Of a DNA stretch of 64,000 nt, positions 641 through 56,424 are shown in pieces. The stretch lies in contig OZ004610.1 of the NCBI GenBank assembly GCA_963924565.1, forward strand, positions 33,418,001-33,482,000. The letters are read 5' to 3'. This stretch comes from Ascidiella aspersa. Its lineage: Eukaryota. The notes beneath the pieces are model-generated. The model was not told the DNA's origin, ran no database searches, and saw only the letters and a list, made by a program, of their open reading frames with translations. Numbering within the stretch: position 1 is the first letter of the stretch; each line of letters begins with the position of its first letter. Both the position numbers and the translations under genes were made by a program.

Positions 641-3600
641 GTATTTTAAAATAAATATTTAATGTTTAGCTTGAATGCTGAGTGTTTATGACTAATGATT
701 ATCTATTGTTTTTCAGTAATTATTACACCGGTCTTGTTCATTGAAAGCATAAGTAATGTATCATTTATTGTGAGATTTTTGGCATTTGATGCAAGATTCA
801 TTCAAGAGGTATTGCTTGTGTTATTCTTTTTTAATATTGATATCTGATTTTAATTTGTTTTAGTTTTGTGTATTTAAAGGATTAAATAATTGTTTTGTTT
901 GAATTGCTTTTTTGTTATTTTTTTTTTGTAAAATTAACTTCCATTTCATTCCATTTAGTTTTGTGATAACCATTTCGTCAAAACTGTAAGATCTGGTTAA
1001 ACTTTTTAGATGTAATATTTTATTAAAGCTATATGTAGGAATTGAGGCTTATGTTACTTAATTGAGTCTAGAGTTCAATTGCTTGCACATTACCAAGTTC
1101 TGAAGTGCTAAGTATATTGTAGATATTTAAGGGGAAATGTCATGGCGTATTGTGGGTGATGATAGACATGACATCCTTGTCACTTTATTTGGTTTGATGG
1201 ATGGTTGATTAAAAAACAGTTGTATTGTTCAAAGTTCAACCGGAGTGTTGTCAAACCAACTGCTCAGCCATAAGTTTACAAAGCGGTCTTGTGTTGTAAA
1301 ATTAAAATTCTAAAATTTACAACTTTGTATTTAAAAAAAAATAAAGTGTAGTTTTACCTAATACACCGAAAGCCATTGCAGACTCACCGAATCTGTCGAT
1401 CAATGATGCAAGAAGGAAAGGCTAGAAAAACAACTAGCCTGCAGTGAGGTTGAACTCACGACCTCCGGTCATACCGGGACCGTCGTTCTACACACTGAGC
1501 TCGAGAAACAGCCATACGCCGTGCTTGCGTATGGCTTGCGTACAGGATGAGAAAGCATTGGCGTATGGTTGTTTTTCGACTACTCTCTGAACCTGCATAG
1601 CTCAGTTTGTAGAGCAACGGTCGCGGTATGACCGAGGTTGTTAGTTTGAACCTCACTGCAGGCTAGTTGTTTTTCTAGCCTGCCCTGCTTGCATCATTGA
1701 TCGACAAAATAAGTTAATATGCAATGGCTTTTGGTGTACTAATTATTCGTAAGCTGTAATCGTTGGTCAAAAAGCAGCTTCAGAAGGGCCAGATCTCAGT
1801 TGTTAACACACATATGTATGTGCATGTTTCATTGAATAGTTTCGCCTAATTTTGGTTTTTCAGATTGCCATTGCGAATCTTGCGACTGGTTCAATTGCTT
1901 TCTATAATTCAAATGGTGCGAGTGTTTTTGTGGTTAATTTAACACCTGCAACCAATTACTCTATCATTGCATCAGTGGTCGGCCATGCAATCACCAGTGA
2001 CATGAAGTTTCAAATTACGAGTAGGAATACAAACTCTTGTTAAAAAACGTTTAATATTATAGTTGCTGTAAATATGCTGTTTCTAACAGGCATAGTATGC
2101 GGCAAATGAGCTCTTCTGGCATATATTTGCTTGTCCAACGTTTCGGCCAACTATACGGAAAGCCTTCATCATGGAATGACATACATGGCCAACAAGACGC
2201 ATAAAGGCTTTTCGTATAGTTAGCAGAAACGTAGGACCAGTAAATATATGCCAAGAGAGCTTATTTTCAGTATAGTTGCTGTAAATTTTGTAAAGTCCGG
2301 TCTGTTCTACAGTTACCTTAACACTATCTTAAAAGAGCTTTCGAATAAGTAATTAGGTTTGTCAAAACATATAATATAAACCAAAAGATTCTGTTTAGAA
2401 GTTTTAATATATTTACTTGGTTAATGCTTACTTTGAAAAGAAACTGAAAGACAAAATGTTTAGATTTTTGTCTTTTCAAAATAAAATTTTGAATTTTTGA
2501 AAGTTGGTTTTGTAGACTTATTGTTTAACAATTTTTTTTTTTTTTATTATTTTATTCATGAAATAAAATCAGTTATTCTTTGCTAGTTTTGTGGTTAAAG
2601 AAGCGTAGTATTTTGTAAAGAGATCTTATGCCATAAAGTGAATATAATATATTAACATTTAAGACATAATCAGTTCAATAGTTGCGCCACTTGTAACTGT
2701 ATTTTACTAAAAAATGTAAAATTTATATAAACTACACAAATACAAAGAATTTATATTCAAAAGTCTGTATTATGCAAAACTTTGTTATAGATATAGTACG
2801 ATGATTAAACTAAGCGTCTGAGATTTCAACATGTTAAATTTTTTTTCAGCCCCAGGTAATGTGATTGGATTTGAAACCAGTTTTGTCGGCAGCAGCTATT
2901 GTGTGGTTAGCTGGAATGCTACAGAGGGGGCTGTAACTTACCAGTTGATTGTGATTATAAAGTCTGCACGTAGAAAGAGGGCGACTGAACTGGTAAATAT
3001 ACATTCCAGGATTCAGTTTAGGCTTTTAGAACCAATTAACCTTAACTGTGTTTGTCCTTACAGGTAAAATCCAGGCGGTACTGTTGACAAATTGTCTTGT
3101 AAATCTAATTTACTAGTTGTAGCACCTACTGATTACCACTTTAATCTGAAATCACTAGCTTGAGTAAAATTACCTTTTCGCAATCGATTAAAGATAATCG
3201 GGATTTTTATATGTCAATTTTGCAGCTCGAAAATTCTTCATGCAATATCCCCGGAAGTAAACAAGACATCGATCAGAAATTTTTACACATTACTCAAAGC
3301 AATCAAACTTTTATCCAAAAAAATTATTAAAATAATAATGTTAGAATTTTGTTGATGAAGATTGATTTTTGTAATTTTTTCCTGGTTTTGAAAATTTAAA
3401 CCTGCCAAATCAAAGTTTGTTTATTTTAAACAGCAGTTTCATGGAAATGATTCCTTGAAATATAATAATTGGTGTCCCAGTTTTATCGGTTAAACCTTTC
3501 CTTCTTCACAACAGAGACTTACAGTAGCAAACTCAACATCAAAGAACATAACCGGTCTACAGGAAGGATCCTCGTACGATATTTCAGTCTCTGCTGTAAA

Positions 3601-6600
3601 CAAGGGTGGTACAGGCCCTCAAACCACAATAGCCTTAACAACAAGTAAGATTAAATATTGTCAAACTTTGATTGGACGAGAGGACAATGCTAGTTTCTCA
3701 TTGGTCGATTTGAATTGTTAAACTGACGTCACGTTTGTCAATAAAAACGTACAAAACAAACTACCCAAGAAATTAAATACAAAATGTATATGTTAACGTG
3801 AAACCAGGTGCTGTTGTTGCAAACGGTTTAGTTGTTGATTGCTAACGTGACTAGAAAAGCTGTGGCCGCCAAAAAGAGTCTTTTTATTTTAGTATATAAG
3901 CTGGCTAACTCATTCTAGTTTTACTTATTAATCCTGATGAGATCAGCTGGTATCTGCTGCCGAAACGTCGTTTTGTGCTTCGTTTACACCAGAAGGGCGA
4001 TTTCTATATATTGATATTATTAAAAGTTTAAACTCATTAAAATTATAAAAAAATCATGGCCCGTTTAGAAAACACCGTCAAGCACCTTTTATGTCAAAGG
4101 TTTAGACCAGTGATGTCCAACATTTTATTATAGTGGGCCGCATTGACACTTGAAATAATTTAATGGGCCGCAGAACCTATTAAGTTTCAAAATTAAGTAT
4201 TGTTCTTTAGAGTTATAACGGGCCTTTATAGTTATATATATATATTTTATCAGTGCACCCCTAAAGGCTGACTGGTACATTTAAATTAGGCTAATATTGA
4301 ACGTTTAAAATACTACTTGGGAGTGAAAAGGACTAGCGGGCCGCACAAAAATTTCAGACGGGCCGCAGGTTGGACATCCTTGGTTTAGACATTTCCTTTG
4401 TCTTTACAGGGCCTGGAGCATTAGATGAGATAATCAACGACTTTTACAACTGTACTTCGTTGAAAGTTTCATGGCTCGGAATTACTGGGGCCCTGACCTA
4501 CTCCATTGAACTTACAACCATAGGCTACACCAGTACATACCTAACTAACGGTAATTACTGAAATTATTACTTCTTAGTATTTCAGTATAGTGCACCTAAC
4601 AATCAAGTGCCTTTCAAATTAAAATTATTAGGCTTCATAGCACTTTGTGTACTTGAAGATGATTGTAGATTTATCTGCCGTATTTATTGTAAATATCATC
4701 ATTTTCCTTTTCTACCCTTTAAAAAGATATGCGTATTGAATTTTCACTCTTCTCTTTAAAAAATAGATTATACCAAAGTTCTGGCTTTTAAATCAAGTTA
4801 TGCTAAATTAAACCTTAATTTTAAGTCAAGTGTAAAAAATACCAATTACAACTCCATATAAGTTTGCGTATAATTTTGATATACAATGTAAGTGTATTTC
4901 CTGATGATCAGATCTTAAATTATTTTAACATCAACTATGGTATTTTTAAAAGTAACAAGTAAGCAAATAACCTTGCACATTAAGTAGTAAGAAAATCAAA
5001 GCCCACACGGAAGTAAAAAAGCCCACGCGGATGTATTGAACGTTTCGAATAACTATTTTTTTGATTTTCAACATTCTTATTGGGCTTTTCTTCTTACTAT
5101 GTCTGACTACAACCTCCAACCATTATGCTCCAAACTTACACATTCACTTTTTACCAAAATTTCAGTTAATAGTAGTGCTGTTCCTAAAGTGTTGTTCCCT
5201 GTTAATTGTTTGTACACCGAATCGCTTTACTAAAATGTTATCCATAGATTTACTATAATGTTATCAATGATGCAAGCAGGGCAGGTAAGAAAAACAACTT
5301 GCCTGCAGTGAGATTCGATCTCACGACCTCCGGTCATACCGGGACCGTTGCTCAACCAACTGAACTTCTTAGAAGGGCTAGATTACAGCTGTTGAACAAA
5401 TGCGTGTGTCTGTCTTTAATTTTGATACGTAAGCCGCAATCGTTAGTCAAAATGCAACTTTAGAAGGGCTAGATGACAGTTATTGAACCTATGTGTGCAT
5501 CATTCATTGACTGTTAATTGTTTTGTTATTTTGTCTAGGAACTACCTGGGAATGGAATGACCTGAGTAACTGCTTGAACTACACAATATCAATATCTGCT
5601 TGTAATTCATTGTGTGGTTCTCTAACTAACCTTGTGTTGACTCCAAGTAAGTGATGGCTTTGTAGAAAGGACATGGCCATTTCATCTGATATCAATATTT
5701 ATGAAACTTTAAACGAACATAGTAAAAATATCAAGTAGGTAGTGTTTTTAACGTTTCGAGTCATTTTCAACATCGATGTTGAAATCTTATGTTGAAATGA
5801 ATAAAAAGATACTCGAAACGTTCAAATGCTACCTACGTCTATATGGTATTTGACATTGATAAAATCCTTGTCCGTGTTTTTTCAAAATAAAATATAATTA
5901 TGCGTCCTGACGGCAGACTCCAAGCAACAAAATTACTTTGAAAAGGTAAATCATCACAGAAAGGTCGATATAAAACGAATACAGACATAATAAAAATAAA
6001 TAATATGCAGCGAAGTTTATTAACATTGGTTCACTCGTTTAATTCCATTCACCCAGTTGGGTTGAGTTTAAAACTAAAACCTTTTTATTAATTTTTTATT
6101 AAGGTTTTAACGGTTTTTGTTAATTGCTACATGGACTCCAGCAGTCTAAGAACAGGTTAATTTTAAATGGCACAAAATCCACTTAAAATCACAAAGATAT
6201 TGAACCTCAGACCTGATATCAGCTTCCATTCAATATAGGGCACACACCAAGGAATTTCTTATGTTTTCTTATTTCAGATTGCTGCCATAAAGATGCGCTT
6301 TGTCTGAACTGTTCTATGGGTTTTCAATGCAGATGTAGAGACGGTCTTAAAGGAAACGGTACTTTCTGCGAGGATATTGACGAATGTAGCGATGTTAGTT
6401 ACACATCGCGCTACAACGCTACTTGTAGCTCGATAACAGAGAGCTCGGTCGTGCTTCTAAACTCGAACTCAACAGATTGCGACGAAAATGCAACTTGTAG
6501 CAACATTTATTCCACATTTGAGTGCGTTTGTGAAAGTGGATTTACTGGGGATGGTTACAGTTGCTATGATATAGTTGAGTGTGACAATTTGCCTTCAGAC

Positions 6601-9600
6601 AATGCTTCGAAATGCGAGAACACAGTAGGAAGTTACATATGTAGCTGCAACGAAGGTTTTACTGGTGACACCTGTAACTGTACAGATATTAATGAGTGCG
6701 AACTGTTACCTTCTGTTTGCCCGAGTAATTCGGAATGTACAAACACATTAGGCAGCTATGAATGCTCATGTTTAAGCGGTTTTAACGGTACTAACTGTAC
6801 AGATATAAACGAATGCCTAACTAACCCATGCCCACCATTTTCAAACTGTACTAACTTACCAGGCAATTATACTTGCAACTGCTGGAAAAATTTCAAACAA
6901 AACGGTTCGGTTTGTGACGACATAAACGAATGTAACAATGCCTCTAACTTATGTCACAATAACGCCGATTGTTTTAACACAAACGGCAGTTACTGGTGCC
7001 AATGTAGACCTGGCTATTCAGGCAACGGGACGAAATGCTGGCAAATCTGCGGCCCTGGTCTTTGCCACGAGTTTGCAAACTGTACAGACGAACCTGAGGG
7101 TTACAGGTGCGAGTGCATAGCTGGGTATGAAGGCAATGGAACAGATTGTAAAGCAATTGACTATTGTGCTAGTAACGACTGTCACTTAAATGCAACCTGT
7201 ACCAGTTTGAGCAGCAGTTTTAAATGCACCTGTGATGATAATTTCGTCGGAAATGGAACTTATTGTGCCGAAATTGACTGCAAAGTCAACTCTAGCTTGT
7301 GTCACGAAAACGCTTCTTGTGTTGAATCAAACTTTAAGAACGTTTGTCGCTGCAAAGATTTTTTCACGCCAAGTGGAAGTGATTGTGTTCATTTCTGCAC
7401 TAAAGGAATTCACAATTGCCATAAGAACGCTGAATGCATAAACCAGAAGACCACATTTACTTGCAGATGCTTGGAAGGTTTTTCTGGCGATGGCGTCCAG
7501 TGTAGAACACTTACAGGCTCCTCTGGTAAGAGTATGTAAAAATATCACAAAAAATAAGCTTTTAAAGAAATTTACCACCAAGACGTAGTAAGTATATCAA
7601 AAAACAAACAGAAGTGGTAGTATTTTGAAAGTTTCGTATAAATATTTGAATAAAAAGTTATTCGAAACGTTTAAAATGCTATCTACTTCTGTATGGGCTT
7701 TGATATTCTTACCACAACCTCCAACCATTATACCACCAAGAGTTTCTCAAAGGGTTAAAAATACGCAATACAACTTTATTTATAAACATAACAATGTAGT
7801 TACGCCAAACACTAAAAATAGTTGCAAAATGTAAAGAACATTGTTTAAGTAATGCAATATTAAAAACACCATAAACTTATGTACAGTACACTGTGCACGG
7901 TTTAAATGTAGCTTATTAATGAAAATCGAAGCCAAAAAGGTCGAGTGAACCGACATCATAACAAAAGACGTTTCGATCCGCACATCATTAGTTTATGTGA
8001 CCTAAATATACGCGTCCCACCTTTTATAAGTAAAATTTGGATTTTATTTAGTCACATTATAATAATGATACAAGTGCTAATCAAAACGTCTTTACTTGAC
8101 CTTCTTGGCCTTGATATTCATTTTTAAAACACGGTAAGACCAATAACAGACATTCTTGGTACAGGAGTAATGAGAATATCAAAGCCCATACAGAAGCAGG
8201 TAGCATCTTGAACGTTTCAAATAACCCTGATTTCATTTTCAATCCTATAAACAGTTATTCGAAACGTTCGTGATACCTACTTCTGTATGGGCTTTGATAT
8301 TTTTATTACGTCTTACTACAACCTCCAACCATTACGCTCCAAAGTTGGTACAGGCGTATACCTTTTAAGACATTTTAATACCTCAATTGTTGCCTACTTT
8401 GTTAAACAGTTTATTATTGAGTTACTTATAATATTCCAAAACCTGCATTGTAACATAAAAAAATCGTGTGTCATAGAACAGAGAATGCAACACAGCTAGG
8501 TAATGACTAGATATTTACAAACCTACTTTATAATAGTTTTTACTTGATCAACTGAATGTTGTTTTTTAGTTTGGTGGATCGTCCTAATTGTACTGGCAGT
8601 CGTCATTCTAATCGCTGTCTTGATCTGCTTTGCTTTTAAAAGAAGGGTAAGCGGTAGAAATATATGGTAATAGCGGATCGGGGCCAACACCCCATTTTAA
8701 GTAGTAGTATCGGTACTAGGGATGTTCAAAGTAGAATACCAAGGTATTCTAGAATAATAGGTTTCGAATCTAGAATAACGAATCCAGAATAGCGAATCCT
8801 AGTATATTTTTATTAAATTATTTTAATTATTTAACCTCGAATTTGTTTGGGGAAGAGATTAATCTTAATCTACCCCACAGGGCCCACAATCACAGCAATA
8901 AATCGCCCAAACAATTTTCTAACATGTGTACATTATAATAAAAAAAATCTCCCATATGTTTAACATTCTTAACAACTGTCATTTAAAGCAGTTCTGTAAA
9001 CTGTTATATGTCAGTTGCCAAAACTTATATTTTTGCCAATAGTTAGTACAATGAAACACTGCACACAGAAGTCTTAAGCAATTCGGTCCTGTTTTATCAA
9101 GCATTGTTGGGTCCTAGAGCTTATTTTTTTACTAACGTGATCTGTTATGCAGTCAAATAATGTACTGCAAAGAATACAAAGTTACTATTGACTTAACGAA
9201 TTCTTGCAATTACACTGCGCCTAAGTGCATACCTCGCTGAATATTGGCCTAAAGTTGACCTTAAGTAACCCTATAGCGCATTTTGTGGACGGCCAGCACG
9301 TTTTACAACGTAATGTTACATTTGCAACTTAACGCATTTAGGGAAATTGCGAACTCCACACCAGACATTACATGTTGATCGCTTGCCCAATAACGCTTGA
9401 TTGACACTTAATTATTAGACGAACGTTATCGCGAGACGCGCTAATTGGTCGCCCGAAAAATCGCTGACAATGCACTACCAGGTTACATTTAAAGCAATCA
9501 CTCTAAATTGGTCGCCGCAACGACAGGCCAACTTACCACACGCGTTTGTGCAATTAGGCGCAACAATCCGCGGTAAAACATTAAATTATATCGGTTCCAA

Positions 9601-10346
9601 TTACCCGAAATAAACGGCAGAATTGGATTCGAATCCAAGGATTCGATATTCTACTTTGAACATCCCTAATCGGTACTCGTCCGATACTAGGGCGGTATCG
9701 GTACTCGTCCGATACTAGGGCGGTATCGGTACTCGTCCGATACTAGGGCGGTATCGGTACTCGTCCGATACTACAGTATCGGTACTCGTCCGATACGAGG
9801 GTGGTATCGGTGCCGATCCGATATTAAATAAATGTACGAATTTTGTACATAATTTGCGACTTTATGTTTTGCATTTAAACAATTCCACCTTGAAATACAA
9901 ATTTCCTAAAAAATGTTAGGTTTACCAATTGAAGGTAACTAAACCTTTTTTTGCTAAAACAATTTCGGCTCCATCACCTGGTAGTGGTGACGTCATTTGG
10001 TATTGGATGGGATCGCTTTACCTATAGGCACTTACGATGCCAGTATATATATGATCCTGGTTTCTCGCGGGTTTTTAAACTTTGAGTTTTATCGCTAAAT
10101 AATAAGCTTATTCTCGTTAAACTACGCGGACTTATTTTTTTGCGATTTTTTTAGAACGAGGGGATCTATTCACCACCCGAAGCGCCAAAGAGCAGCTGGT
10201 TTCGAGCCAACCCGAAGTTTTTGAGCACTTTTGATGACGTACCTGATGAAAATTCATCCGGGGTCGTGGCTGATGACCTTGGCAGTCAATCGGATGACCT
10301 TGACACACGGCATGGCCACAATGTGCCTAACGTTGAAAGAAGATAA
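1..10346 (+). CDS. 5'-partial multi-exon gene: cbEGF-repeat / 3xFN3 / 10xEGF single-pass membrane protein; join(<1..640,717..808,1864..2020,2850..2992,3515..3644,4410..4550,5539..5646,6278..7525,8570..8646,10155..10346)
   Basis: Manual splicing gives one open frame with GT-AG introns and consistent phases (1,0,1,0,1,1,1,1,0), ending at TAA 10344-10346. Domains recognised from Cys spacing, FN3 W/Y/L-x-P motifs and a hydrophobic helix. Confidence 0.88.
717..808 (+). CDS. Exon: first half of FN3 domain 1 ([21 protein letters not shown]...)
   Basis: tttcag acceptor at 716, gag|gtattg donor; phase compatible with both neighbours. Confidence 0.75.
1363..1836. mobile_element. Inverted-dimer element with internal tRNA-like cassette (copy 1, most complete)
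   Basis: 1363-1527 is the reverse complement of about 1552-1738. tRNA-like cloverleaf at about 1592-1664 (+) and 1435-1501 (-). Flanked by tagttttacctaat (1349-1362) / tagtttcgcctaat (1837-1850). Confidence 0.8.
1592..1664 (+). ncRNA. tRNA-derived (pseudo-tRNA) cassette with A and B boxes
   Basis: CCTGCA-TAGCTCAGTTTGTAGAGC-AA-CGGTC-GCGGTAT-GACCG-AGGTT-GTTAGTTTGAACCTCAC-TGCAGG. Repeated at other loci, so repeat-derived rather than a real tRNA. Confidence 0.7.
1864..2020 (+). CDS. Exon: second half of FN3 domain 1 ([15 protein letters not shown])
   Basis: tttcag acceptor, FN3 L-x-P-x-T-x-Y motif, a|gtagga donor. Confidence 0.85.
2074..2270. mobile_element. Inverted-dimer element with minimal hammerhead motif (family E), Penelope-like non-autonomous derivative
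   Basis: Arms about 2104-2166 / 2204-2266. Perfect 16-bp flanking direct repeat tatagttgctgtaaat (2058-2073, 2271-2286). Minus strand 2175-2134 reads TCC-ATGATGA-A-GGCT..GGCC-GAAAC-GTT-GGA. Confidence 0.72.
2850..2992 (+). CDS. Exon: first half of FN3 domain 2 (PGNV...[30 protein letters not shown])
   Basis: ttttcag acceptor, FN3 VSW and Y motifs, ctg|gtaaat donor. Confidence 0.87.
3515..3644 (+). CDS. Exon: second half of FN3 domain 2 ([24 protein letters not shown])
   Basis: Classic FN3 C-terminal motif; acag acceptor, a|gtaaga donor. Confidence 0.9.
3665..4015 (+). mobile_element. Penelope-like pLTR remnant: promoter motifs plus hammerhead motif (family C)
   Basis: ATTGG at 3671 and 3700, TGACGTCA at 3724, TATATAAG at 3893, then CTGATGA-(CAGC/GCTG stem)-GAAACGTC at 3934-3969. 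Boundaries approximate. Confidence 0.55.
4108..4382. mobile_element. hAT-type MITE
   Basis: TIRs cagtgatgtccaac / gttggacatccttg; perfect 8-bp TSD gtttagac (4100-4107, 4383-4390); subterminal gggccgca repeats. Confidence 0.88.
4410..4550 (+). CDS. Exon: first half of FN3 domain 3 (PGAL...[20 protein letters not shown])
   Basis: tttacag acceptor, FN3 motif, g|gtaatt donor. Confidence 0.87.
4982..5134. mobile_element. Family A inverted element (hammerhead-like core)
   Basis: Matches the family A consensus; flanks cttgcacatt / cttacacatt. Confidence 0.75.
5262..5510. mobile_element. tRNA-cassette inverted element, copy 2
   Basis: Minus-strand tRNA/body segment (5262-5365), then plus-strand, partly duplicated 3' tail ending cattcattga. 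Confidence 0.75.
5539..5646 (+). CDS. Exon: second half of FN3 domain 3 ([18 protein letters not shown])
   Basis: tctag acceptor, FN3 L-x-x-x-x-x-Y-x-I-x-I-x-A-x-N motif, a|gtaagt donor. Confidence 0.85.
5719..5857. mobile_element. Family A inverted element (degenerate)
   Basis: aacgtttcga...gttgaaatgaataaaaagatactcgaaacgttcaaatgctacctac. Confidence 0.7.
6278..7525 (+). CDS. Large exon: ten divergent EGF/cbEGF domains
   Basis: Includes the 6316..7539 ORF; atttcag acceptor at 6277, g|gtaaga donor at 7525/7526. Confidence 0.93.
7584..7730. mobile_element. Family A inverted element
   Basis: Consensus arms; 11-bp direct repeat taccaccaaga at 7573-7583 and 7731-7741. Confidence 0.8.
7905..8125. 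mobile_element. Family B inverted element (hammerhead motif in both arms)
   Basis: Left arm aagccaaaaaggtcgag...gacgtttcgat...catcattagtttatgtg; right arm cacattataataatgatacaag...aaaacgtcttta...cttcttggcctt. Confidence 0.65.
8166..8344. mobile_element. Family A inverted element
   Basis: Truncated left arm and full right arm ending gctccaaag; 10-bp TSD ttggtacagg (8156-8165, 8345-8354). Confidence 0.85.
8570..8646 (+). CDS. Exon: transmembrane helix and stop-transfer ([26 protein letters not shown])
   Basis: ttttag acceptor, about 23 hydrophobic residues then KRR, agg|gtaagc donor. Confidence 0.9.
8717..9668. mobile_element. 952-bp non-autonomous hAT element nested in another MITE
   Basis: Perfect 22-bp TIR TAGGGATGTTCAAAGTAGAATA; perfect 8-bp TSD atcggtac (8709-8716, 9669-9676). 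Confidence 0.92.
9669..9825. repeat. 28-bp minisatellite of hairpins (gtatcgg-tactcgt-ccgatac-tagggcg), about 5 copies, within the host MITE (about 8669-10015)
   Basis: Direct inspection; a single copy of the unit occurs in related elements at about 13810 and 22874. Confidence 0.88.
10155..10346 (+). CDS. Terminal coding exon: cytoplasmic tail ([16 protein letters not shown]...NVERR*)
   Basis: ttttag acceptor at 10154, 63 open codons, TAA at 10344-10346. Confidence 0.75.
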   Translation, partial: NEGIYSPPEAPKSSWFRANPKFLSTFDDVPDENSSGVVADDLGSQSDDLDTRHGHNVPNVERR

Positions 10347-21245: not shown

Positions 21246-21702
21246 CCACAAGTGAACCATTTAACAATTAAACAACTATGGTTAAGCCAAACGCAGCAGA
21301 AGGGTTTACGTTACAGTTGTGAAGAGTTCTGCTTTTTATTACTTGGTTGTCGCGAAAAAGGTAAAGAAACGCTAACTTAAAAAAGAGAAAAATTCTCCAT
21401 CAGAATGAAATTCCGCCGCGCCCTTAGATCCAACCCATCCATGTTGTCAGCAATTGTGTTTTATCTCCCTTGTAATTAAGCGAGATTGGCTTCCAGAACT
21501 GCGACCGAGATAAAATGTCTTACCCATTGTCGCGAGAGCGGCCATGTTTGTTCTGAGCAAAGAGCGTCTCGACTCGGAAGTAAAAAACTTCCAAGGCAAA
21601 TAAATCTTATCAGGATCGGATCCTTGCAGGGGTAAAAAATGTAGAAAGCATTTTGGGTTCGTCAGTTTTCTTGCTTTCAATTTAAAGTAAGAGATTTTAT
21701 AG

Positions 21703-21853
21703 AGTAACAAAGCCCATACAGAAGTAGCAATCATATTGTAAACCTTTCGAATGACTCTTTATTGATTTTAAAAAAACGTTTAAAATGTTACCTACTTCTT
21801 GATGACATTTAATATTCTCACAGCGTCTTACTAAAATCCCAATTATTATGTTC
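21703..21853. mobile_element. Family A inverted element (degenerate)
   Basis: caaagcccatacagaagtag ... cctacttct ... gtcttacta. Confidence 0.7.
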
Positions 21854-22504
21854 AATAATTGTACCTTTATTGTAACCAATTGATTCATTTCAATAAAAAA
21901 TTAAAAGCATCTAACTTTCTTGTAAAATGAAGCCAAAATAGGCGATAAAAACGCAATATATTTTTCTCTACGCCAACTAATTGACATTATAAGAGAACGA
22001 CCAAAGGTTTTTTTCAATTAAATTATTTTCTTGAAAAATGCCATTTGATTTTTTAGATATAAACCAAGACTTCTTATTAGGACTTGATTGACCCCCCCCC
22101 CAATGGTCCCAGTTTAAGATCCCTGATTTAACCTAAATCGACTTAAAATTTCTCGAGCTCTGCGTTTTTTTCTGCTCTTGGAATCCAGTCGCTTATTTAC
22201 ACACTGATTCAGCGATTTCCATCCAGGCCGCAATCCAGGTTCCTTCTTTCCTTCAACTATTTTCAGTAATTCGCGACCGCCTTCTTATCAACTCCGGGGT
22301 CAAAGTTTCACGATTGCCTGGCGATCGCGCGCTTTCGCGTCACCGCGACAATCAACAATGGCTCGTGACAATTGCGCATTGTTAGGCACGTTCCCGAACG
22401 GAAGGGCTAATAGATTTTAAAAAATGCCAAATTGCCAAATTTATTTTCGTTGCATTTTAAGTTAGTCGGATGATACTTAATTGCAACTAAATCTATTTGT
22501 TCAC

Positions 22505-22697
22505 ATAATAAGAATACCAAAGCCCATACAGAAGTAGGTTGCATTTTGAACGTTTCGAATAACTCTTTTTTTATAACTCTTTTTTTATAAGATGTTCAAA
22601 ATGAATAAAGAGTTATTTCGAAACGTTCAAAAAATACTTCTGTATGGACTTATAGATATTGTTATTACGTCTTACTACAATCTACAACCATTATGCT
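22505..22697. mobile_element. Family A inverted element
   Basis: Both arms present; centre gatgttcaaaatgaataaagagttatttcgaaacgttc. Confidence 0.8.
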
Positions 22698-22820
22698 TTT
22701 TTACTCACGCGAATTAAACATACATTGAAATTCAAATCCCGATTAAAACCCAGGATAAATTGCTTGTTATGATCCTGGATTCTATTAAGATACACAAATT
22801 TTATGTGTGTACAACTGCAG

Positions 22821-27997: not shown

Positions 27998-28257
27998 AGC
28001 ATAACGGTTGGAGGTTGTAGTAGGACGTAAAGTGAATACCAAAGACAATACAGAAGTAGATTGTATTTGTAAACGTTTATAATGAATCTTTTTATTTTAT
28101 TCGACCTCTGAAGGGTTATTCGAAACGTTCAAAATGCTAGCTACTTCTGTGTGGGCTTTGATATTCATTCTACATCTAACTCCAACCATTATCTTAAGAT
28201 TTACCGAAACGTTCAAAAGGATACCTACTTCTATATGGGCTTATATATTCTTACAAC
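27998..28257. mobile_element. Family A inverted element with tandemly repeated right arm
   Basis: Full left arm gcataacggttggaggttgtag; two head-to-tail right-arm units. Confidence 0.8.
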
Positions 28258-28523
28258 AAATGTTGAGTTACGTGAGTATTCTTTAGTAATTTCCACCTTC
28301 TGTTTATGTTTACCCGCTTTCCGTTCGATAACCTTAGGTTCGCCTCGCTTGTAACACGCCAGGGGAAAGTACGTGACGATCAATAACCACTGCATCAAGC
28401 GAAGGTGAGGGCGCATGTAGGAAATTTGCGGAAGGCCGCGGTGACCTTTGTGTACCTGGATTAAACTCAACAACACTAGAGGAGAAAACTGCACGGGGTG
28501 GAAGCAACACTAGCTGGGTTATG

Positions 28524-28887
28524 AAGAACGAATATCAAAACCTACGCAAAAAAAGTTGCATTTTGTGAACGTTTCAATTAATCTTAAGATAATGGCTGGA
28601 AGTTGTATTTATACGTAGAAATGATATCAGAGCCCGTACAGAAGTAGGTAGCATTTAGTGTACGTTTCCAACGTCTTGTCATATCTTAATTCTAAGCTAA
28701 ACTACAACCTCCAATCATCACTTTTAAGATTTATTCAAAATGCTACCTATACTTCTGTGGGAGCTTTTATATTCATTCCGCGTCTAACTGCAACCTATAG
28801 CCATAATCTTAAGATTTACGTTCACAAAATGCAACCTACATTAGCATGGGCGTTGTTTAATTCAGCGTCTAACTATACAACCCCAGC
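28524..28887. mobile_element. Family A complex: tandem ~95-bp subunits in both orientations
   Basis: Subunits joined by atcttaagat. Confidence 0.7.
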
Positions 28888-30462
28888 TTTAAAGGGGTTC
28901 GTTCGGGTCACGTTTAAGGGCCGATTTTAGGGGATATGGCGTCCCATGGGGGTCAGGACCTCTCAACGACATAACAAAAACGTGAAGCCTTTAATCGCTT
29001 AAGTTTCCGATCTTTTTTACCACCCATGAGTGTTAGGGGAGGTTTTATCCCCCTTACCCCTCCGGTTAAGTCCCTGGCAACTTCAGCGGTAGTTGTAGTT
29101 CGTCGAATTGTGCGATAAGCAAAAACGTCGAAATGACGGAATCGCCATCAATCAGGGTGCGATTTGAAGAGCAGCCAGGTGCTGGGTTCACATTGAGCGC
29201 AGGGCTGATCTGAGGCACGTTTGACCTTGCCGACTCAAGGTCAAATATCTCGCCGGTTGGGGTACAAAGTAAAGAAGCCTTAGAATTAGCACCCTTACTT
29301 CTGTTAAGGCCGCGGTTCCTTTAGAGGCAATTAATCAGTTAAATTCCTGTCATCTTTGAAGCTACAGGCTTTTATGGATCTGGAGTGAGCGGCTATTAAC
29401 CACAAGACGCTCTTTTTCCACCGAAATGCAAACATTAAAACGTGATCTTGAAGCCTCGGGTTCGCACTTCTAGTTTTGAACCTTATCATTTTTGAAGTCG
29501 TCCTCATAGTTCATAAACTGATAAATCGTCGGTACACAGCTGTGTAAGAGACACGCCAAAGTACATTCCTTGGGGCTTATATGATCTCTACGTGTCGTTA
29601 ATTGCGTGTTTCGTTATAACACACATGAATTACAAACGCAAATCGTTGATAGGCTCAAGGGGTTCTAAACTTGGGACCCCTTGGGGTACGTGGATTAATT
29701 TTGGGGTCCACGAAGGCCTTATTCTAATATTGGTGTATTATTTAATAAATCAAATAAACCTTTCAAACAAAAAGTTCAAAAAGAGATTGAAAACAATAAC
29801 CAACACTGAAGTAAAAGCTTGGCTTGATCTCGTATAGTAATAATAAGTCTATAGATTTATACTTAACTTTACTTTTATAATAAAGTATAATGTAAAACCC
29901 TTCAAAGCCTTGAACTCGCGAAACATCTTAGTTTCTCTTTCGTAATATGGGCCAGAAATCCATAGCCTACCAAGGCTGATCTAAGGTGAAATCATTCCTT
30001 GGCCAAATGGGAAGAGAATATAGAATTGCAGCGATTTTTAGCAGATTTTTAGCTTTGATTAAAACTGAGGTGAAATCAGAGAAAGAGAATCAAGAATTTC
30101 AGCGGCAACCCAACTGCAGCTTTAGTTTTGATTAGAACCGACGAATTCTGGCACTTCTATTTTTAAACCCGTCGCACTGAGCAACTCAAAGTCCACTAAC
30201 GTCAGCAAATTCCCTTAAATCTTCGTAGTTCTTGATTCTCGAGTGAGGCCCTTGAGTGGATTCGCGGGCACTTGTGAGACAAGACACATTTGTATCGCTT
30301 CGAGCGCCCTCAAGTGTTGACCCCGGCCTTGATCATAGTGTAAGTTAATTACTTCCACAAAACCAAGTCCCCGCTGTTTTCTGGGCGCCCATTTAAACCT
30401 TTAAGCACCATCGGCCGCTATTGTCACTTTGAGTGCCGGAAAATAAAGTTTAGAGCAAACTA

Positions 30463-30566
30463 ATTAGACGTAGAGTGAATGTATCAAAGCCCATACAGAA
30501 GTAGGCAGCATTTCGAATGTTTCCAATATATCTTTTCTAGGTTGAAAATAACGAGATGTTGGAAAC
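30463..30566. mobile_element. Family A fragment
   Basis: tatcaaagcccatacagaagtagg. Confidence 0.7.
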
Positions 30567-31580: not shown

Positions 31581-31726
31581 TTTTTGGAGCATAATGGTTG
31601 GAGGTTGTAGTAAGACGTAATAAGAATATCAAAGCTCATACGGAAGTAGGTATCATTTTGAACGTTTCGAATAAATCTTTATTCATTTTCAACAGATCCT
31701 ACTTTTGTATGGGCTTTGATATTCTT
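31581..31726. mobile_element. Family A inverted element with intact U3-A8 hammerhead-like core on the minus strand (31659-31694)
   Basis: Full left arm and truncated right arm; flanks ataaggttattcaa (31567-31580) / ataaggtgattcaa (31727-31740). Confidence 0.85.
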
Positions 31727-32880
31727 ATAAGGTGATTCAACATTTGTAAATTAAATTAAGTGTCAGTGAAAAATATGCAGCTAATTGGTCGAAACATGTG
31801 ATTTTTTTAAATGCTTTGTTATGAAGTTTTTCTGGCAGAAGTTTGCAGAAACAAGAGGCACCCAAGTAGTGTTCGAGCATGAAATATCATATTTTCCTGC
31901 TTGTCTTGAATACGTGGGCGTTACTAGGTCGTTATTATGCCGCTCCACAAAGCGAAACGAGTTAATAGAGCGGAGAAAAAATGACATTCCGTTAAGCCGA
32001 GAGAAAAACATTTGGTAACACGAGCCTCCGCCCACACATTACGTTCTTGTGAACGTCGGAATGTCGATTAAACGTAACGTAGCCACGTCGCTTTTTTCTA
32101 CTTCTGTTTTTTGTTCAGGCGTCCATTCCTAAGTGCGCCCAAGCGTTAAAAGTCCTTTGAGGTCGGAAACAATGCGGTGTATTTCAATGGTATGACGTTA
32201 TCGAGCTTGTTAGGTTCTTTGACTGGCAATGGTTGCTGCCCAGGGTGGCAATTTCAAGAAAGCCTCAAAACATTTGAACTTCCAGATCCCTAAAAAGCCT
32301 TTCTTCACTAATCGGGGAGTCGAACTCTAAACCCCTGGAATTTGAATTGCGCCCAATTTGATTTTGAAGGGGAGAGCAACCTGAAGACAGCGGAATGTGT
32401 AAATTGTTTATCCGCCGCCCAAAGTCGCACGTTCTCACGGCATGACGTCACTGGGAGGCAATGTTAACGACTGCTAAAGTACACCCAGGAAGCTGAATTG
32501 GCACCGGCAGGGCTCTGAGTCTGATATTCCCGGTCTGTTTTAACAAGGCGTTTGCGCTTGCTAGTTTCAAGAAAAAGTCAATTCCTTACACCTTCGGATC
32601 GTAAACCCGGCTTTATTATTAAGAGCCTTCTGAAAATTGAAGTGAAAGCAAAGACTTGTAATTGTAACTCGTACAACTTAACTTTTTTATCTGTTTTGTT
32701 TTCCTAACTCCTCTGCCGCGGCTGAACAACTGAGGCTGGTTTTGTCCACATTAGATACAATTTATTTAGATATAATTACGCAACAACTTCTTTATTTAAC
32801 AAAAATATTTAGATTTGCATTCCAACATAAGTTTTATAAATTTAGTTGTCTATAAAATCTGCAGTGGAAGCATATCCGTA

Positions 32881-35085: not shown

Positions 35086-35192
35086 AACTACCCAACCTTC
35101 AGCCATTATTATTTTAAGATTTATTTGAAACGTTCTCAAAATGATACTTACTTCTGTATGGGCTTTGATATTCATTATACATGTAACTACCA
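35086..35192 (+). mobile_element. Family A tandem-arm fragment
   Basis: gaaacgttc..tacttctgtatgggctttgatattc. Confidence 0.7.
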
Positions 35193-35957
35193 TTTTCTTA
35201 CAGTTATTTTATCTTTAAAAACAGTACAAAGTTTGCCTTGGCATTCAGGTCTAAACTTTTTCACCCAGTGACCTCTTGTCAAATTGAATTTGAAGCAATT
35301 TGAAGTACAGACTCAAAATATATATTTTCCTTTCCTTGTCAACTAAGCGTTAAACATCCGAGGTAACTTGACACTTTCGCGTCCAGGTGCCTAAAATTAA
35401 TTAAAACTTTGCCCGAAATTTCACGGTGTGAATTTGTCAACAATTTTCGAGCTCGTCTGTTCTTTTTCTTGACCAGAAAATAACAACAACTAAAAATCGC
35501 GGAAAAGTCTCATTAAATTCAAATAAATTAAGTTTTTGTTACAGCGGTTGAATTAGCTCCAGGTTCTGCTACTTTGAATGGAATTCCACTTGAGTTGATT
35601 TGAAACAAATTTTCCATCCTGACACAAATATGAGGTTTCTTTTTGAAAATCGTTTGCAACCATTCAAAAGTGTTAGCTCGAAAAACCTTCATTCCTATCT
35701 AAAATACTCGATATAAAAGGTTGTGTCACTATAATAACTCTAATTATGTGTATCTCGAGTTGTTATGATTATGGTACGACATTATTTGGTGAAAAAAAAA
35801 ATGTATTGCTGAGGTTAGCGCAAGTCCATCGTATAAACCACATGCGATATTAAAAAAATAATATAAAACATAAAAATGTTTATTGGGAAACGAAAAGAAA
35901 ATGAATAAAAGGCAATAAATACACTAAAAACAGTGGTTTTAAACTTTATATGATTGG

Positions 35958-36091
35958 TACACCGAAAGCCATTGCAGACTCACCGAATCTGTCGATCAAT
36001 TCGGTGTAATCGTTGGTCAAAAAGCAGCTTCAGAAGGGCTAGATCTTAGTGGTCAACATGCACATATATATGTGTGTGTACATTTCATTGA
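35958..36091. mobile_element. tRNA-cassette element family, copy 3 (centre deleted)
   Basis: Minus body tacaccgaaagccattgcagactcaccgaatctgtcgatcaat joined to the plus tail; flanks ttatatgattgg (35946-35957) / ttaaatgattgg (36092-36103). Confidence 0.8.
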
Positions 36092-38887
36092 TTAAATGAT
36101 TGGCTGATCCTTCCATAGGCTCTCAACGATTTGTTTCCCTTCAACGTAACTAGGGAGGTCCATAAAGTTCTAATAAGGGCCACAGATTTCAGTTGGATAA
36201 AAATACTATAGGCATACGCGCCCAGTTTAAAAAAACAAAACCACTGCTTCAATCCATACATTTGAGTTTAACTGACGAATGGATAAAATACCATTGAGGT
36301 AAGGGTTGGGGATAAAGCTAGTTACATAAAGCTAGTAAACGCTGACGATAGTAGCCTAATTATTACGTCTGTTGCTGAAAATAAGGCATTCATGGCGGCC
36401 AATATTTATTCCAGACAACTGCCATTTAACCGAGTTCAGAAAGACTGCCGCAAAATTAATAGCCAATCTGCAGCAATAATAATTCGTGATTTTTGCCTTC
36501 AAGCGTCACCATTTTAACTACACAGGCCGCCAGTCACAAATTTCAGATTATGGCTTGTTCGATTTATTGCGTTTTACGGCTTTCTAAGCAAACAACTCTC
36601 GACATTATGCAGTTAAAATGTAAATACTTTATTACCTGAACCTGAATTCAACTTAACTAAAACAAATAGGTTACATGTTTAACTGTTTGTTGTAGGCTTA
36701 AGTACTTAACCCCTTAAAATGTCTTGTTGAATAAAATCAACAGTCAAATTTGTTGGAAACTTTAAGCAACCTTATCCTCCACAAAACAAATTACATGCTT
36801 AGGTTAATCCCCTGCAAATAAAAGAGCTCAGGAGGTTACAGTGTGGGAATTAATACATAGATCTGCGCCAGATAACGGGCAAGAATCAAGTTGTGGCAAA
36901 CAGTTTTTAAAGCCGGAAATAGAAACGACGCCAACCTTGCAGAATCGCGTGTTTGGAAAAATACTTTGCATTTGGCCGTAACCGGCCCCGGGCGTTTAAA
37001 CGGTCAGATAAAGCACATTTGACCTCTTTACCTTGCGTCCACTTTGACCTTTATAGCCCCAAGGTCAAAAAGCAGGGGCCTGTCTTTATCGGGTTGCATG
37101 GGCCGCATCTTGGGTAGCTGTTTAGGAAATTACAGTTGCTAGCACACGGGACAGGCGATGTGTGGGCCCAATGTGACCTTGAATGTCGCCTGATTAGACA
37201 ACTAAAGTCTGGGTCATTGTTTGGTAATAAAGTGACAAAGTGGGTCGCGCGCGCTTCACAAAAGAGGCTTAATTTACGAGGCTTTGTCCACTGGCGTCAG
37301 GAGTCTAGGTAACCGAAGATCCCAAGGTGTTATATCCGTTTGCAATTTAGGCGCCTTCGCAGCCTATGCTGGATATGGGACGAGTGCTTAATTAATCCAT
37401 TAACACTGTCACCTTTTGTGGCGACTTTTTTGCTTGCTTTAGCAGGACATCCAATGCTTTTTCTCACCTGGTGAAACTGGTAGAAACTGTATCAATTAAG
37501 TCCGCCACTTCCGACAAGTAATTGAGGTCATTCTTAACTTGCAAAATTACCTTTTCGCCCAAAAGTTACAAACTGCAGCAAATGCAGTTTTAATTAGAGT
37601 TAAATACCAAAAACTAAGTAATAAGACACAATTTAGACTAAATTTGACCACGGTATAACGTGCAATTTAATATCCTATTTCCTGTAGGCCTACAAATAAC
37701 TGAAATATAAGGCTATAAAATGTAAATTATTAAATGCTTTGCTTCATTAAAAAAACAGGTAGTAGAGCCTATTACATCCATATCACATCGATTTTTGTAA
37801 CATTTTAAATTAAATGAGATTTGTCACACAAAAACAGATTTTAAGCCATATGGACCACCTTGTACCAAACTTGACCTTCAGCCCCAAAGTCAAACCCGGC
37901 TGTCAATTTTGGTTTCCCATGCGCATTTTCACACCGACTCGGCAGCAGGTGTACATTTTGACGTCATTGTCATGCATGAAAAATAACCTGCGGGTTCTTG
38001 CAAGGCTACACTTTTGCCAGTGCGTGTCATGTTGCACTCGTGATGGTCCTGGGTGATATTAGCAAGCATAACAACTCATAAAACCTTAAACAAGATCACA
38101 AGAGGACAGTTAGTCACTTAAAGCCACTCCAAAACCTGTTGAAAGGTCAAGTTTCAATCCAAGTGACAATATTTCTTTACAATTTTGTTTTTTGATTTGT
38201 ACAAATGGAAAACAATCAACTTAAACGCTGTCTCGGTCGTAGTTCATGATTTATTAAATCTATAAATTTGTTTAACCCTTAATCACCAATATAATGCGGA
38301 TACTTTTAATTTCTATGTTTTCAGATGCGCAAGATTTAGTTTAAAAGGCATTGTTTAAAAATTGTGACGCAATAATATTTCACAATAGCGGAAGAATACG
38401 AACAATTGCGCCAAACTAGATTTCAGTGCGAGAAAGTTTGCAGAAGACATTTTAATAAGTTGTTTATTACTTTAAAATAAGTGTTACTCAACCAAAAGCT
38501 AGAGAAATTAGTTCATGTTGTTTTGTTGAACTGAAAGCGTTACAACAATTGTTTTTTCTGTCTAGAAAAGGGAAAACTTGTGTTGTCAGATAAAGTTGGG
38601 GTTATGCTTCGAAGAATTTATCAGTCAAATTTTGTTTAGCCTATAGCTGTAGTTTGTTAGGGAACATTGTTTTAAACCAGTAGATGTCAAATTGTGTACC
38701 TTAATTGATTCTTAAGGGTTTGCTAACTTTTGTAGTTTTAGAATATAACCTTTTAGGGCGCTAATCTCGAATGCTAGTACTTTTTTTTTACAGTAACGAA
38801 ACGAGTTCTTAAAATTTAAGTTGCAAAAAGATATAAATACGGAAGAATAAATAAAATATTCGAAAATATTTTGTGTTAGTGTGCAAT

Positions 38888-39135: not shown

Positions 39136-40040
39136 ATTTTGCGATATAAACCCCATAAATGCTATTTTTCATTGCAACTCAGCGATACTTCACGCCCTAA
39201 TGACGTCACTGGCGTGATTTGGGCAACATTGCACCACATAGATCTTTTTCAGTCGGTTAGGAAACAACTGAAGAATTATGAGTTTATCCGAAAACACTTA
39301 GTCACCATGCGCAGCAGTTTACGCTCAAATATGCCGAGTCACGGTTACTGCCAGCCTATTAGTTCTCAGCCCGTTGTGAATGGGAAAGACTAAAACATCC
39401 CTCTTTTTGGAAAACCGTGATGTTCAACTGTTTAATGGTGCCTTTCTGAATAAGAACCATTATAATGTTATGGGACTGGTTTGATTGACGTTCTTGTTTT
39501 TTTATTACCATGAAAATCAACCGCGGAATGATTTTATTTTCTTGTATGCAAATATAAATACGACTGATTGAATGATTGCTTAGTGTAAAGATTTTACGCT
39601 AAGATCTGCAAACATTTTCACATAGGCGTTTTATAGGTAGGTGATGTAGTTACCTTGTTGTTAGTGAATGTAATCGTTACAAGCCTACCTCATTTTAAAT
39701 TTTTGTGTTTCGATATGTTCAAATATAGCTGTTTAGTATGTTTTTCTTTGTATAGGGGAGTGCGAAAGTAGTTGAGATTTACAAAACATCATTGCCTATA
39801 AACTTTCGTTTGAAAACACCTGTTAAAAGCCAATATATAAAAAGGTTGTATGTTCTTTGTTACTGATCAATTTGATCACATGACAACAAATTGTAGCTGG
39901 CTTGAAACGTTTACTATCCTTAGTATCCTAGGATAGTTGGCAAGTTATATCGCTACTGCCTTATCGTGTAAATATAAATGATATGGTGATGTAATCTTGG
40001 GCTGCAAATTTGTTTTTATTTGCTTAGTGTGCCGCAGACT

Positions 40041-40398
40041 ACAAAAGTTTTAGAACCACTGCTAGAACGACAAAAAAATGTATAAATCGTCCCGCGAATT
40101 TGCTTTTGATTAGTCTGTACAACAAAAATTTGAAAACCCTGCTAGAACGACGAAAAAATGTATAAATTGTCCCGCGAATTTGCTTTTGATTAGTCTGTAC
40201 AACAAAAATTTGAAAACCCTGCTAGAACGACGAAAAAATGTATAAATCGTCCCGCGAATTTGCTTTTGATTAGTCTGTACAACAAAAATTTGAAAACCCT
40301 GCTAGAACGACGAAAAAATGTATAAATTGTCCCGCGAATTTGCTTTTGATTAGTCTGTACAACAAAAATTTGAAAACCCTGCTAGAACGACAAAAAAT
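40041..40398. repeat. 80-bp tandem repeat, 4 near-identical units plus partials
   Basis: gctagaacga at 40061, 40141, 40221, 40301 and 40381. Confidence 0.95.
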
Positions 40399-45825: not shown

Positions 45826-45893
45826 CGAAACTTTTAAATGTTACCTACTTCTATTTGGGCTTTGATATTTTTTTGCGTCTGACTAAAACCATT
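45826..45893 (+). mobile_element. Family A single arm
   Basis: cctacttctatttgggctttgatatt..gtctgacta. Confidence 0.65.
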
Positions 45894-47627: not shown

Positions 47628-47703
47628 ATAGTAAGAATATCAAAGCCCATATAGGAGTAGGTATCATTTTGAACGTTTCGCATAACTCTTTATTCATTTT
47701 CCA
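47628..47703 (-). mobile_element. Family A single arm
   Basis: aagaatatcaaagcccata..gaacgtttcgcataactctttattcatttt. Confidence 0.75.
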
Positions 47704-48929: not shown

Positions 48930-49024
48930 TAGCATAACGGCTGGAGGTTGTAGAAAGACGGAATAGATGGATAACTAAGCCCATACAGAAGTATAGGTGG
49001 CACTTTGAACGTTTCGAATATCTT
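48930..49024 (-). mobile_element. Family A single arm
   Basis: gcataacggctggaggttgtag..aagcccatacagaag..gaacgtttcgaata. Confidence 0.75.
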
Positions 49025-56196: not shown

Positions 56197-56424
56197 CTAA
56201 GACGCAGTAAGAATATCAAAGCCCATACAGAAGTAGGTATTATTTTTAGCGTTTCGAATAACTCTTTATCCCTTTTCAACCTTATTTCATTTCTGTATGT
56301 GCTTTAATATTTCTACTACAACCTCCAGCCATTATTTTAAGATTTATTCGAAACGTTTAAAATGCTTCATACTTCTGTATGAGCTTTGATATTCATTCTA
56401 CGTCTAACTAAAACCTCCAGCCAT
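56197..56424. mobile_element. Family A inverted element with tandem right arm
   Basis: Left arm plus two right-arm units. Confidence 0.8.

Follow-up and report, generated by a model that had tools for sequence, protein, structure and literature searches.

A tandem, tRNA-containing repeat family in Ascidiella aspersa that is probably mobilised in trans by a Penelope-like element

The stretch analysed here (the window) comprises 64,000 nucleotides of the Ascidiella aspersa genome (GenBank assembly GCA_963924565.1, contig OZ004610.1, positions 33,418,001 to 33,482,000, forward strand). It holds three insertions of a non-coding repeat family with an internal tRNA-like cassette, each made of two inverted arms between target-site duplications (TSDs). 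A sequence-only reading had taken them for a candidate short interspersed element (SINE)-like family that inserts as an inverted dimer with the help of Penelope-like elements (PLEs). The three loci are real and mutually homologous. The family has two fixed 3' ends, A and B, and monomer positions are numbered from the base after end A. The parts of the loci are as follows.

1349..1362, no strand: left TSD of locus 1, 14 bp, 2 mismatches against the right copy
1363..1528, minus strand: B-arm of locus 1, starting at end B (monomer ~255), crossing the tRNA-like cassette (which has lost its 5' part) in reverse, and reaching monomer ~61
1542..1836, plus strand: A-arm of locus 1, from monomer ~52 to fixed end A (~354)
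1591..1663, plus strand: tRNA-like cassette of locus 1 with A and B boxes, a decayed copy (young copies score 55 bits to RF00005)
1667..1683, plus strand: predicted hairpin of locus 1 with a run of five T (T5, 1670-1674) in its loop, predicted to compete with the acceptor stem
1733..1739, plus strand: end B (GGTGTAC), one of the family's two fixed 3' ends
1740..1836, plus strand: B-to-A tail, ~98 nt; 1783-1814 is similar to the tail and open reading frame (ORF) start of resident PLE family 2
1837..1850, no strand: right TSD of locus 1
5199..5211, no strand: left TSD of locus 2, 13 bp, perfect
5212..5366, minus strand: B-arm of locus 2, with end B at 5212, ~40 nt unmatched, and a stretch running from monomer 216 to 113 that includes most of the tRNA-like cassette
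5367..5510, plus strand: A-arm of locus 2, two tandem tail pieces, stopping at end A
5511..5523, no strand: right TSD of locus 2
35946..35957, no strand: left TSD of locus 3, 12 bp, 1 mismatch
35958..36000, minus strand: B-arm of locus 3, 43 nt, without the tRNA
36005..36091, plus strand: A-arm of locus 3, tail only, no overlap with the B-arm
36092..36103, no strand: right TSD of locus 3

As the sequence-only reading had noticed, a minus-strand arm is followed at all three loci by a plus-strand tail that ends in TTCATTGA (1828-1835, 5503-5510, and 36084-36091). It had seen duplications of 12-14 bp around two of the loci; the bracketing is as described, but it extends to all three. Locus 2 begins at 5212 rather than at 5262, because of the perfect left TSD at 5199-5211, and locus 3 lacks the tRNA. 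Nor are these inverted dimers of whole elements: each consists of two 5'-truncated arms with different 3' ends. Neither ARAGORN nor Rfam (at the gathering threshold) calls a tRNA inside the window, where the copies are too decayed. A copy of locus 1 with 99% identity and shared flanks lies 57 kb away (L002, G000:C4:33362026), which indicates a local duplication. By eye, positions 1-645 and 6280-7000 of the window appear to contain gene exons (tandem 123-bp EGF-like repeats and fibronectin-like exons), and loci 1 and 2 appear to be intronic in this EGF-like/fibronectin-like gene.

Across the genome, the family unit is a non-coding monomer of 345-354 bp that occurs as 1-7 head-to-tail units. The sequence-only reading was right that the element is non-coding, but it overlooked the tandem, circularly permuted unit. 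A search of the genome gave at least 102 matches (40 scored candidates out of 3,795), and exact patterns matched the tail 377 times and the T-arm 2,050 times (reversed controls, 0); the family comprises more than 2,000 tRNA-like cassettes. The youngest copies are perfect head-to-tail arrays with a period of 354 bp, in which the cassette spans 105-179 and the T5 run 185-189, followed by ends B (~255) and A (~354). Arrays reach ~7 units under one TSD, and many copies are shorter than a monomer. Some copies are identical, so these are recent. The predicted fold of the monomer is a branched rod (z −5.3 for the linear form; z −4.8 for the circular form, with 60 shuffles).

We classified 152 records. 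They comprised the 30 best matches, the 30 that came first among the tail matches, 76 loci drawn from T-arm matches 1-100 on contig C1, two loci of the window, and 14 additional picks. Removing 23 overlapping or duplicated records left 129 insertions, a non-random sample. The fraction of inverted copies under one TSD, which the sequence-only reading had proposed to count, is 66/129 (28/67 in the tRNA-anchored subset). Another 60 insertions are single-armed (28 end at A, 25 at B, and 7 elsewhere) and 3 are complex. Ends A and B are ~98 nt apart, with A downstream of B. Both ends are intact in 49 of the 66 head-to-head insertions, and 48 of these pair one arm ending at A with one ending at B; one is labelled A+A, and none is B+B (in the remaining 17, one or both ends are eroded). 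A confident TSD was found for 73 of the 129 insertions, and 60 of these TSDs measure 12-15 bp. They are not due to chance, as 42/73 insertions had a TSD score of at least 9 compared with 5/213 shifted boundary controls (first 73 insertions).

The inner 5' ends, in contrast to the 3' ends, are scattered around the monomer. Only 7/156 lie at the tRNA start (5.7 expected by chance) and 1/156 just behind the tRNA, and single-arm copies of the tRNA-anchored type start near the tRNA at no more than the chance level (2/36). Monomers starting at the tRNA, which the sequence-only reading had named as the pattern that would undo its proposal, are therefore not what we find. Both types of arm can be multimeric (up to 2,527 nt for a B-arm and 1,541 nt for an A-arm). 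End B is 152 nt from the tRNA start, and 33/48 B-arms run past the 5' end of the cassette. Also, 22/48 A-arms stop within ~25 nt of B, which is expected with two primers on one template.

Could this be an ordinary tRNA-derived SINE, moved by an L2/CR1-type long interspersed element (LINE), with chance twin priming or adjacent insertions giving the inverted loci? The element is short and non-coding, it has TSDs, and its tRNA-like region exceeds 60 nt and 100 copies, as in SINEs. However, SINEs have been defined to include a 5'-terminal head derived from RNA polymerase III (Pol III) transcripts and non-tandem dispersal (PMC3531059). Here the cassette is internal, the 5' ends do not favor its start, and the units are tandem. 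The two fixed 3' ends with one per arm (48:1:0) and the frequency of inversion in the tRNA-anchored subset also speak against a SINE, and so do the ends themselves: no simple-repeat or poly(A) tail was seen, the element ends at two fixed, non-repetitive sites, and the TSD size equals that of the resident PLEs. The element is not a SINE, contrary to the SINE-like label it had been given, and from the architecture of the insertions and a tail comparison confined to PLEs we consider movement by such a LINE highly improbable. A DNA-level element (Helitron/Helentron-like, or a miniature inverted-repeat or foldback element) or a satellite spread by recombination could account for the tandem arrays and the palindromic copies. 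But retroposition is indicated by the TSDs of 12-15 bp that enclose entire arrays, by the random 5' truncation seen in each arm, and by the asymmetric ends. Nor do the arms form terminal inverted repeats of a set length, so we give this explanation almost no credence.

The genome holds many young elements that combine a reverse transcriptase (RT) with a C-terminal GIY-YIG endonuclease; the proteins match RVT_1 (below the curated cut-off) and GIY-YIG. At least seven young PLE families (L091-L170, L231-L270) share the order hammerhead, end B, tail, end A. Inverted copies of these PLEs also show one end per arm, with shared boundary words of 12-15 bp in 19/22 rows (one locus is counted twice). 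This is how the repeat family inserts, which supports the sequence-only reading in tying it to the pathway of the hammerhead families, although that reading missed that each arm has its own fixed 3' end. The offset from B to A is ~37 nt in PLE family 1 and ~80-90 nt in the family-2 clade, whose tail of 80-90 nt is about twice the published 30-40 bp. Copies of family 2 are 98-100% alike, and we noticed a tandem of full-length copies at G000:C2:30.63 Mb. Two of the PLE loci, L092 (G000:C11:2088-5303) and L091 (C35), are on small contigs with bacterial-looking genes (L092 has UvrC-like and Rho-like frames), which suggests a symbiont or a contaminant in the assembly.

The sequence-only reading had suggested comparing the 3' tail to PLE ends, and the tail does resemble one of the seven families, which it had overlooked. 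The B-to-A tail aligns, in register at both B and A, with the family-2 tail, which is the start of the family-2 ORF. With the window copy, the score was 49 (0/500 shuffles as high), and with the young monomer 3/500 shuffles reached the score; family 1 was not significant. When five subfamily queries were compared with the seven PLE families (six of them decoys; the comparison was among PLE tails), 4/5 queries singled out family 2 and no decoy (z of 10.1, 5.2, 4.7, and 4.1). The RNAs of the element and of family 2 are both predicted to form a long stem across end A, with A near the tip, and the element's stem is kept in 10 aligned copies, with 3/44 pairs changed on both sides. Overall, the tail similarity is moderate evidence for a family-2 partner.

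In these PLEs the hammerhead lies upstream of end B, and the sequence-only reading had suggested that the element might have a hammerhead ending at GAAAGC. None ends there: GAAAGC is private to the window copy, and 42 aligned copies mostly read GAGCAAGC. A scan for the hammerhead core plus stem II found 0/129 insertions positive (7/7 PLE control loci were positive), and Rfam E-value scans of a young array and six other loci found no ribozyme family, only tRNA and weak chance matches. CTGATGA occurs in one subfamily only (monomer ~16-22), within a paired stem and without GAAA, and it varies in the others. We rejected two other candidates. A GAAAC-ATAT-GTA motif on the minus strand near end A could form a minimal stem III, but it has no upstream core and varies between copies. 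A fold like that of hepatitis delta virus around the hairpin before B was judged by eye against the consensus and dropped; Rfam gave no match. Separately, two hammerhead-core matches elsewhere in the window (2096-2274 and 3934-3969, one in a head-to-head palindrome with direct-repeat flanks) are probably PLE stubs of other families.

What stands in place of the hammerhead is the cassette. Its end lies ~76 nt upstream of B; in family 2 the cut site of the hammerhead, as read from the sequence, lies ~68 nt upstream of that family's own B; the tRNA-like cassette and T5 occupy the PLE hammerhead position. About 104 nt of family sequence separate the cassette from the tail of the preceding unit, so the tRNA is internal and not the 5' end, as had been claimed. 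Across 93 distinct copies, some of them selected on the T-arm, each base pair of the acceptor, D, anticodon, and T stems is kept in 88-100% of copies (88-93 copies). The A and B boxes and T5 are conserved, with a T-run of at least 5 in 76/93 cassettes. The B-box core is 95-100% conserved, a value inflated by the sampling on the T-arm, while the anticodon loop and the trailer vary. Thus, the cloverleaf described by the sequence-only reading keeps its A and B boxes, but its GGT anticodon is not fixed. ARAGORN made 31 calls in 16 loci with six anticodons (24 Ala(GGC), 2 Thr(GGT), and 5 other), which implies that the cassette is not a decoding tRNA. Also, the anticodon arm is two bases longer than in the RF00005 model, and the 31 calls do not show the fixed canonical anticodon arm of a functional tRNA gene.

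An RNA of 105-189, which ends at T5, should by prediction adopt a cloverleaf (probability ~1 for the acceptor pairs). With eleven extra bases, a predicted 9-bp hairpin (173-198) takes the 3' strand of the acceptor stem, and the acceptor probability falls to 0; the same switch is predicted in the linear and the circular monomer. The competing hairpin keeps its pairing at variable sites, with one two-sided change in 18 copies, which is probably a single event. In an older subfamily, units have two cassettes, with a junction that leads from the T-run to monomer ~44 (matched exactly 16 times; L271-L286, L031, L067, L070, L071, and L081), and the hairpin is missing from the first cassette. The two-cassette form is also present in contigs of run X1. 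GTACTAA occurs at monomer 44-50 and 252-258 (L020:1128-1134 and 1336-1342), that is, where the two-cassette junction lands and at end B, and the copy at ~44 is possibly a second B-like site. Old diverged relatives (L287-L291, L283, L284, L011, and L033) differ in the sequence that links the cassette to a B-like end. A supposed sister family with a different, PLE-matched tail came down to 5 pattern matches, which were old diverged relatives without a PLE match.

We propose that these loci belong to a retroelement built of tandem monomers, which a resident Penelope-like RT/GIY-YIG endonuclease likely copies in trans, and that its cassette is likely a Pol III promoter at the place of the hammerhead in the pseudo-long terminal repeats (pLTRs) of PLEs. 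We regard this whole account as likely; that a PLE of the family-2 clade does the mobilising is very probable; and a role of the cassette as Pol III promoter, with a T5 that is leaky, we favor only slightly. Transcripts that read through the T5 would give RNA of more than unit length or circular RNA. This long RNA would fold into a rod in which the 173-198 hairpin hides the acceptor stem, and such masking of the cloverleaf may protect it. Its long stem, with A near the tip, would mimic a PLE tail. The enzyme would nick the two target strands 12-15 bp apart and use one nick to prime at A and the other to prime at B. The two cDNAs would thus meet head to head, and repeated passes over one monomer would build arrays. 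The insertions resemble those published for PLEs, with an inverted 5'-truncated copy and a tail at one end (PMC8557442), and a pLTR was sufficient for mobilisation in trans (PMC3846280). Circular PLE templates have been proposed (PMC4209133). Private changes also fit repeated copying of one monomer (a circle or re-jumping), or else a uniform source array outside our sample: in one array (L217) a private change is in 7/7 units covering the site and in another (L218) in 4/4, and these changes are absent from the 18 other young loci compared. At the DNA level, circles, linear multimers, and strand transfer by way of the repeated cassette look alike. The template may also be antisense, as has been suggested for PLEs (PMC3846280).

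Several observations weigh against this proposal. First, most Pol III transcription should terminate at a T5 that follows the cassette by seven bases. Second, there is no accumulation of 5' ends at the tRNA start and most B-arms are longer than 152 nt, so single-unit Pol III transcripts cannot be the usual template. Third, some arrays contain unlike units (0, 8, and 8 differences in L039; 5 in L016), which a single circle does not explain. Fourth, there are pair-keeping changes in the acceptor stem, but CpG decay could account for them. Fifth, the covariation term for the stem across end A is unfavorable (+1.64), and the fold of family 2 is no better than shuffles overall (z +0.7). Finally, the tail similarity is short (the core is 27/32 nt), the tail of the L177 subfamily has no significant match to family 2 (15/300 shuffles), and a profile search with nhmmer gave the family-2 tail only E~0.4 in 284 kb. 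No closer PLE partner was found by nhmmer in those 284 kb and 138 kb more of PLE loci (120 loci from three protein/family searches), and BLAST in the 284 kb returned element copies only. In the same 284 kb, the element showed no enrichment beside PLEs (3 copies, not above background).

Some of these points would suit an element that is mobilised by a PLE but whose cassette is an inert or nearly inert passenger, that is, an old SINE head or a tRNA captured in a pLTR-derived repeat. Pol II transcription that reads through host introns or through arrays, possibly in antisense, would then supply the RNA, and an antisense template has been proposed for PLEs (PMC3846280). The lack of a 5' pile-up at the cassette agrees with this, as does the existence of tail-only insertions such as locus 3, and T5 would shorten any Pol III products. 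Against it, the B-box core is kept while the anticodon loop and trailer vary, although this conservation is inflated as described, and the older subfamily duplicated its cassette instead of losing it. We consider an inert cassette possible, though rather unlikely.

Another possibility is that the cassette serves as a signal for RNA processing in place of the hammerhead: the units would be cut by host tRNA enzymes, tRNA ligase would close monomer circles, and a PLE would reverse transcribe these by rolling circle. The matching distances of the cassette end and of the hammerhead cut site from B, and the pairing of all four stems, are in line with this. A circle would also fit the private changes shared by all units, the lack of a fixed 5' end, and the rod-like circular fold, and RtcB closes the circles of retrozymes (PMC7229834). 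Yet the competing hairpin is predicted to displace the acceptor stem completely in RNA of unit length, neither end of the tRNA shows an excess of 5' ends (7 and 1 of 156), and the anticodon has no intron-like insert. Moreover, the ends left by RNase P and RNase Z do not suit RtcB. We therefore think that processing is a quite unlikely role for the cassette. A stronger form of it seems similarly doubtful to us: a ribozyme-free retrozyme in which the tRNA-like module fully replaces the hammerhead, both as promoter and, by the switch from cloverleaf in short RNA to masking hairpin in long RNA, as a timed cut site, with host tRNA enzymes releasing and closing monomer circles that the Penelope RT would copy from two fixed priming sites.

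How does the proposed PLE-copied element relate to known systems? Animal non-LTR retrozymes are defined by their hammerhead (PMC7229834) and have been described as PLE derivatives (bioRxiv 10.64898/2026.07.22.740005). The element shares with them (same sources) tandem monomers of 150-450 bp, a highly self-paired fold, long TSDs, and co-occurrence with PLEs (here 354 bp, the z-scores given above, and 12-15 bp), and a pLTR origin has been proposed for retrozymes. Unlike retrozymes, which have a type I hammerhead in each unit, it has a tRNA-like cassette with T5. The schistosome repeat SM-alpha is ~330 bp with a tRNA-related region. Like SM-alpha and Sj-alpha, the element is a short, non-coding, often tandem repeat with a putative internal Pol III-type promoter that must transcribe the next unit; but SM-alpha has an active hammerhead after its promoter, and no type I hammerhead was found in the 129 insertions here. 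A review describes SM-alpha as joining a Pol III promoter to a hammerhead in tandem repeats (PMC6765202), so the view that nothing like this combination had been described was too strong; the passages cited do not mention the two-end inverted architecture or a PLE partner for SM-alpha.

Non-autonomous PLEs are also known, such as MRC1 of the Chlamys group, and Naiad/Chlamys PLEs do not have canonical hammerheads (PMC8557442). MRC1 and Chlamys resemble our element in being non-autonomous, in multicopy head-to-tail insertions, in 3' similarity to autonomous families (tentative for our element), and in the tail at one end with an inverted 5'-truncated copy, as described in that source. The element shows this pattern, including partial tandems, and a young autonomous RT and GIY-YIG partner is present in the genome. 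Unlike Chlamys and Naiad, the likely partner here is a hammerhead-bearing, C-terminal GIY-YIG PLE, and the tail is 80-98 nt instead of 30-40; a tRNA cassette is not mentioned for them in the passages of PMC8557442 cited. Among elements with long terminal repeats (LTRs), Helenus and Cassandra (TRIMp3; PMC10886601) are likewise non-autonomous, with a Pol III cassette derived from a small RNA inside the repeat and a transcript that would span from cassette to cassette. According to the same source, these are LTR elements with a primer-binding site and a polypurine tract that are moved by Copia or Gypsy and have short TSDs. In contrast, our element has 5'-truncated arms, TSDs of 12-15 bp instead of 4-5 bp, and no fixed LTR pair. 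By analogy, it may be seen as the PLE counterpart of the LTR-type Helenus. In the literature that we covered, no tRNA-containing, hammerhead-free PLE passenger and no mention of this family was found; Repbase, Dfam, the SINEBase tables, Ciona SINEs (Simmen and Bird 2000), the original SM-alpha papers, and supplements were outside this coverage, so a database entry may exist.

The window also contains other repeats. A second, far more abundant AT-rich family occurs as head-to-head and tandem pieces with the core CTACTTCTGTATGGGCTTTGATATTC; its window copies had no match to the hammerhead core, and one copy adjoins a PLE 3' end (in L167). An 80-bp tandem repeat and a short-period repeat at 40038-40397 and 9669-9831 are unrelated to the tRNA-cassette element. 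The AT-rich copies are at these positions.

5081-5137, 5776-5857, 7580-7731, 8163-8347, 21697-21871, 22501-22702, 27998-28835: AT-rich repeat copies
30461-30549, 31583-31735, 35093-35208, 45800-45911, 47599-47718, 48923-49035, 56198-56424: AT-rich repeat copies, continued

Passengers with Pol III cassettes are known for LINEs (the SINEs) and for LTR elements (Cassandra and Helenus), whereas the passengers described for PLEs are for the most part hammerhead retrozymes. This family appears to occupy the vacant place, as a passenger of PLE type that has a tRNA cassette, no hammerhead, and thousands of copies. Such families are easily overlooked, as tRNA finders label the copies Ala(GGC) or Thr(GGT) and screens for retrozymes that are based on the hammerhead would miss them. 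The family suggests that mobilisation in trans can do without the hammerhead, even where the mobilising clade has one, and that the signal needed in cis may be narrowed to ~150 nt around ends B and A. How PLE tails and inverted ends are made has been called undefined (PMC8557442), and the 48:1:0 rule in an element of 354 nt would offer a minimal substrate for addressing this question.

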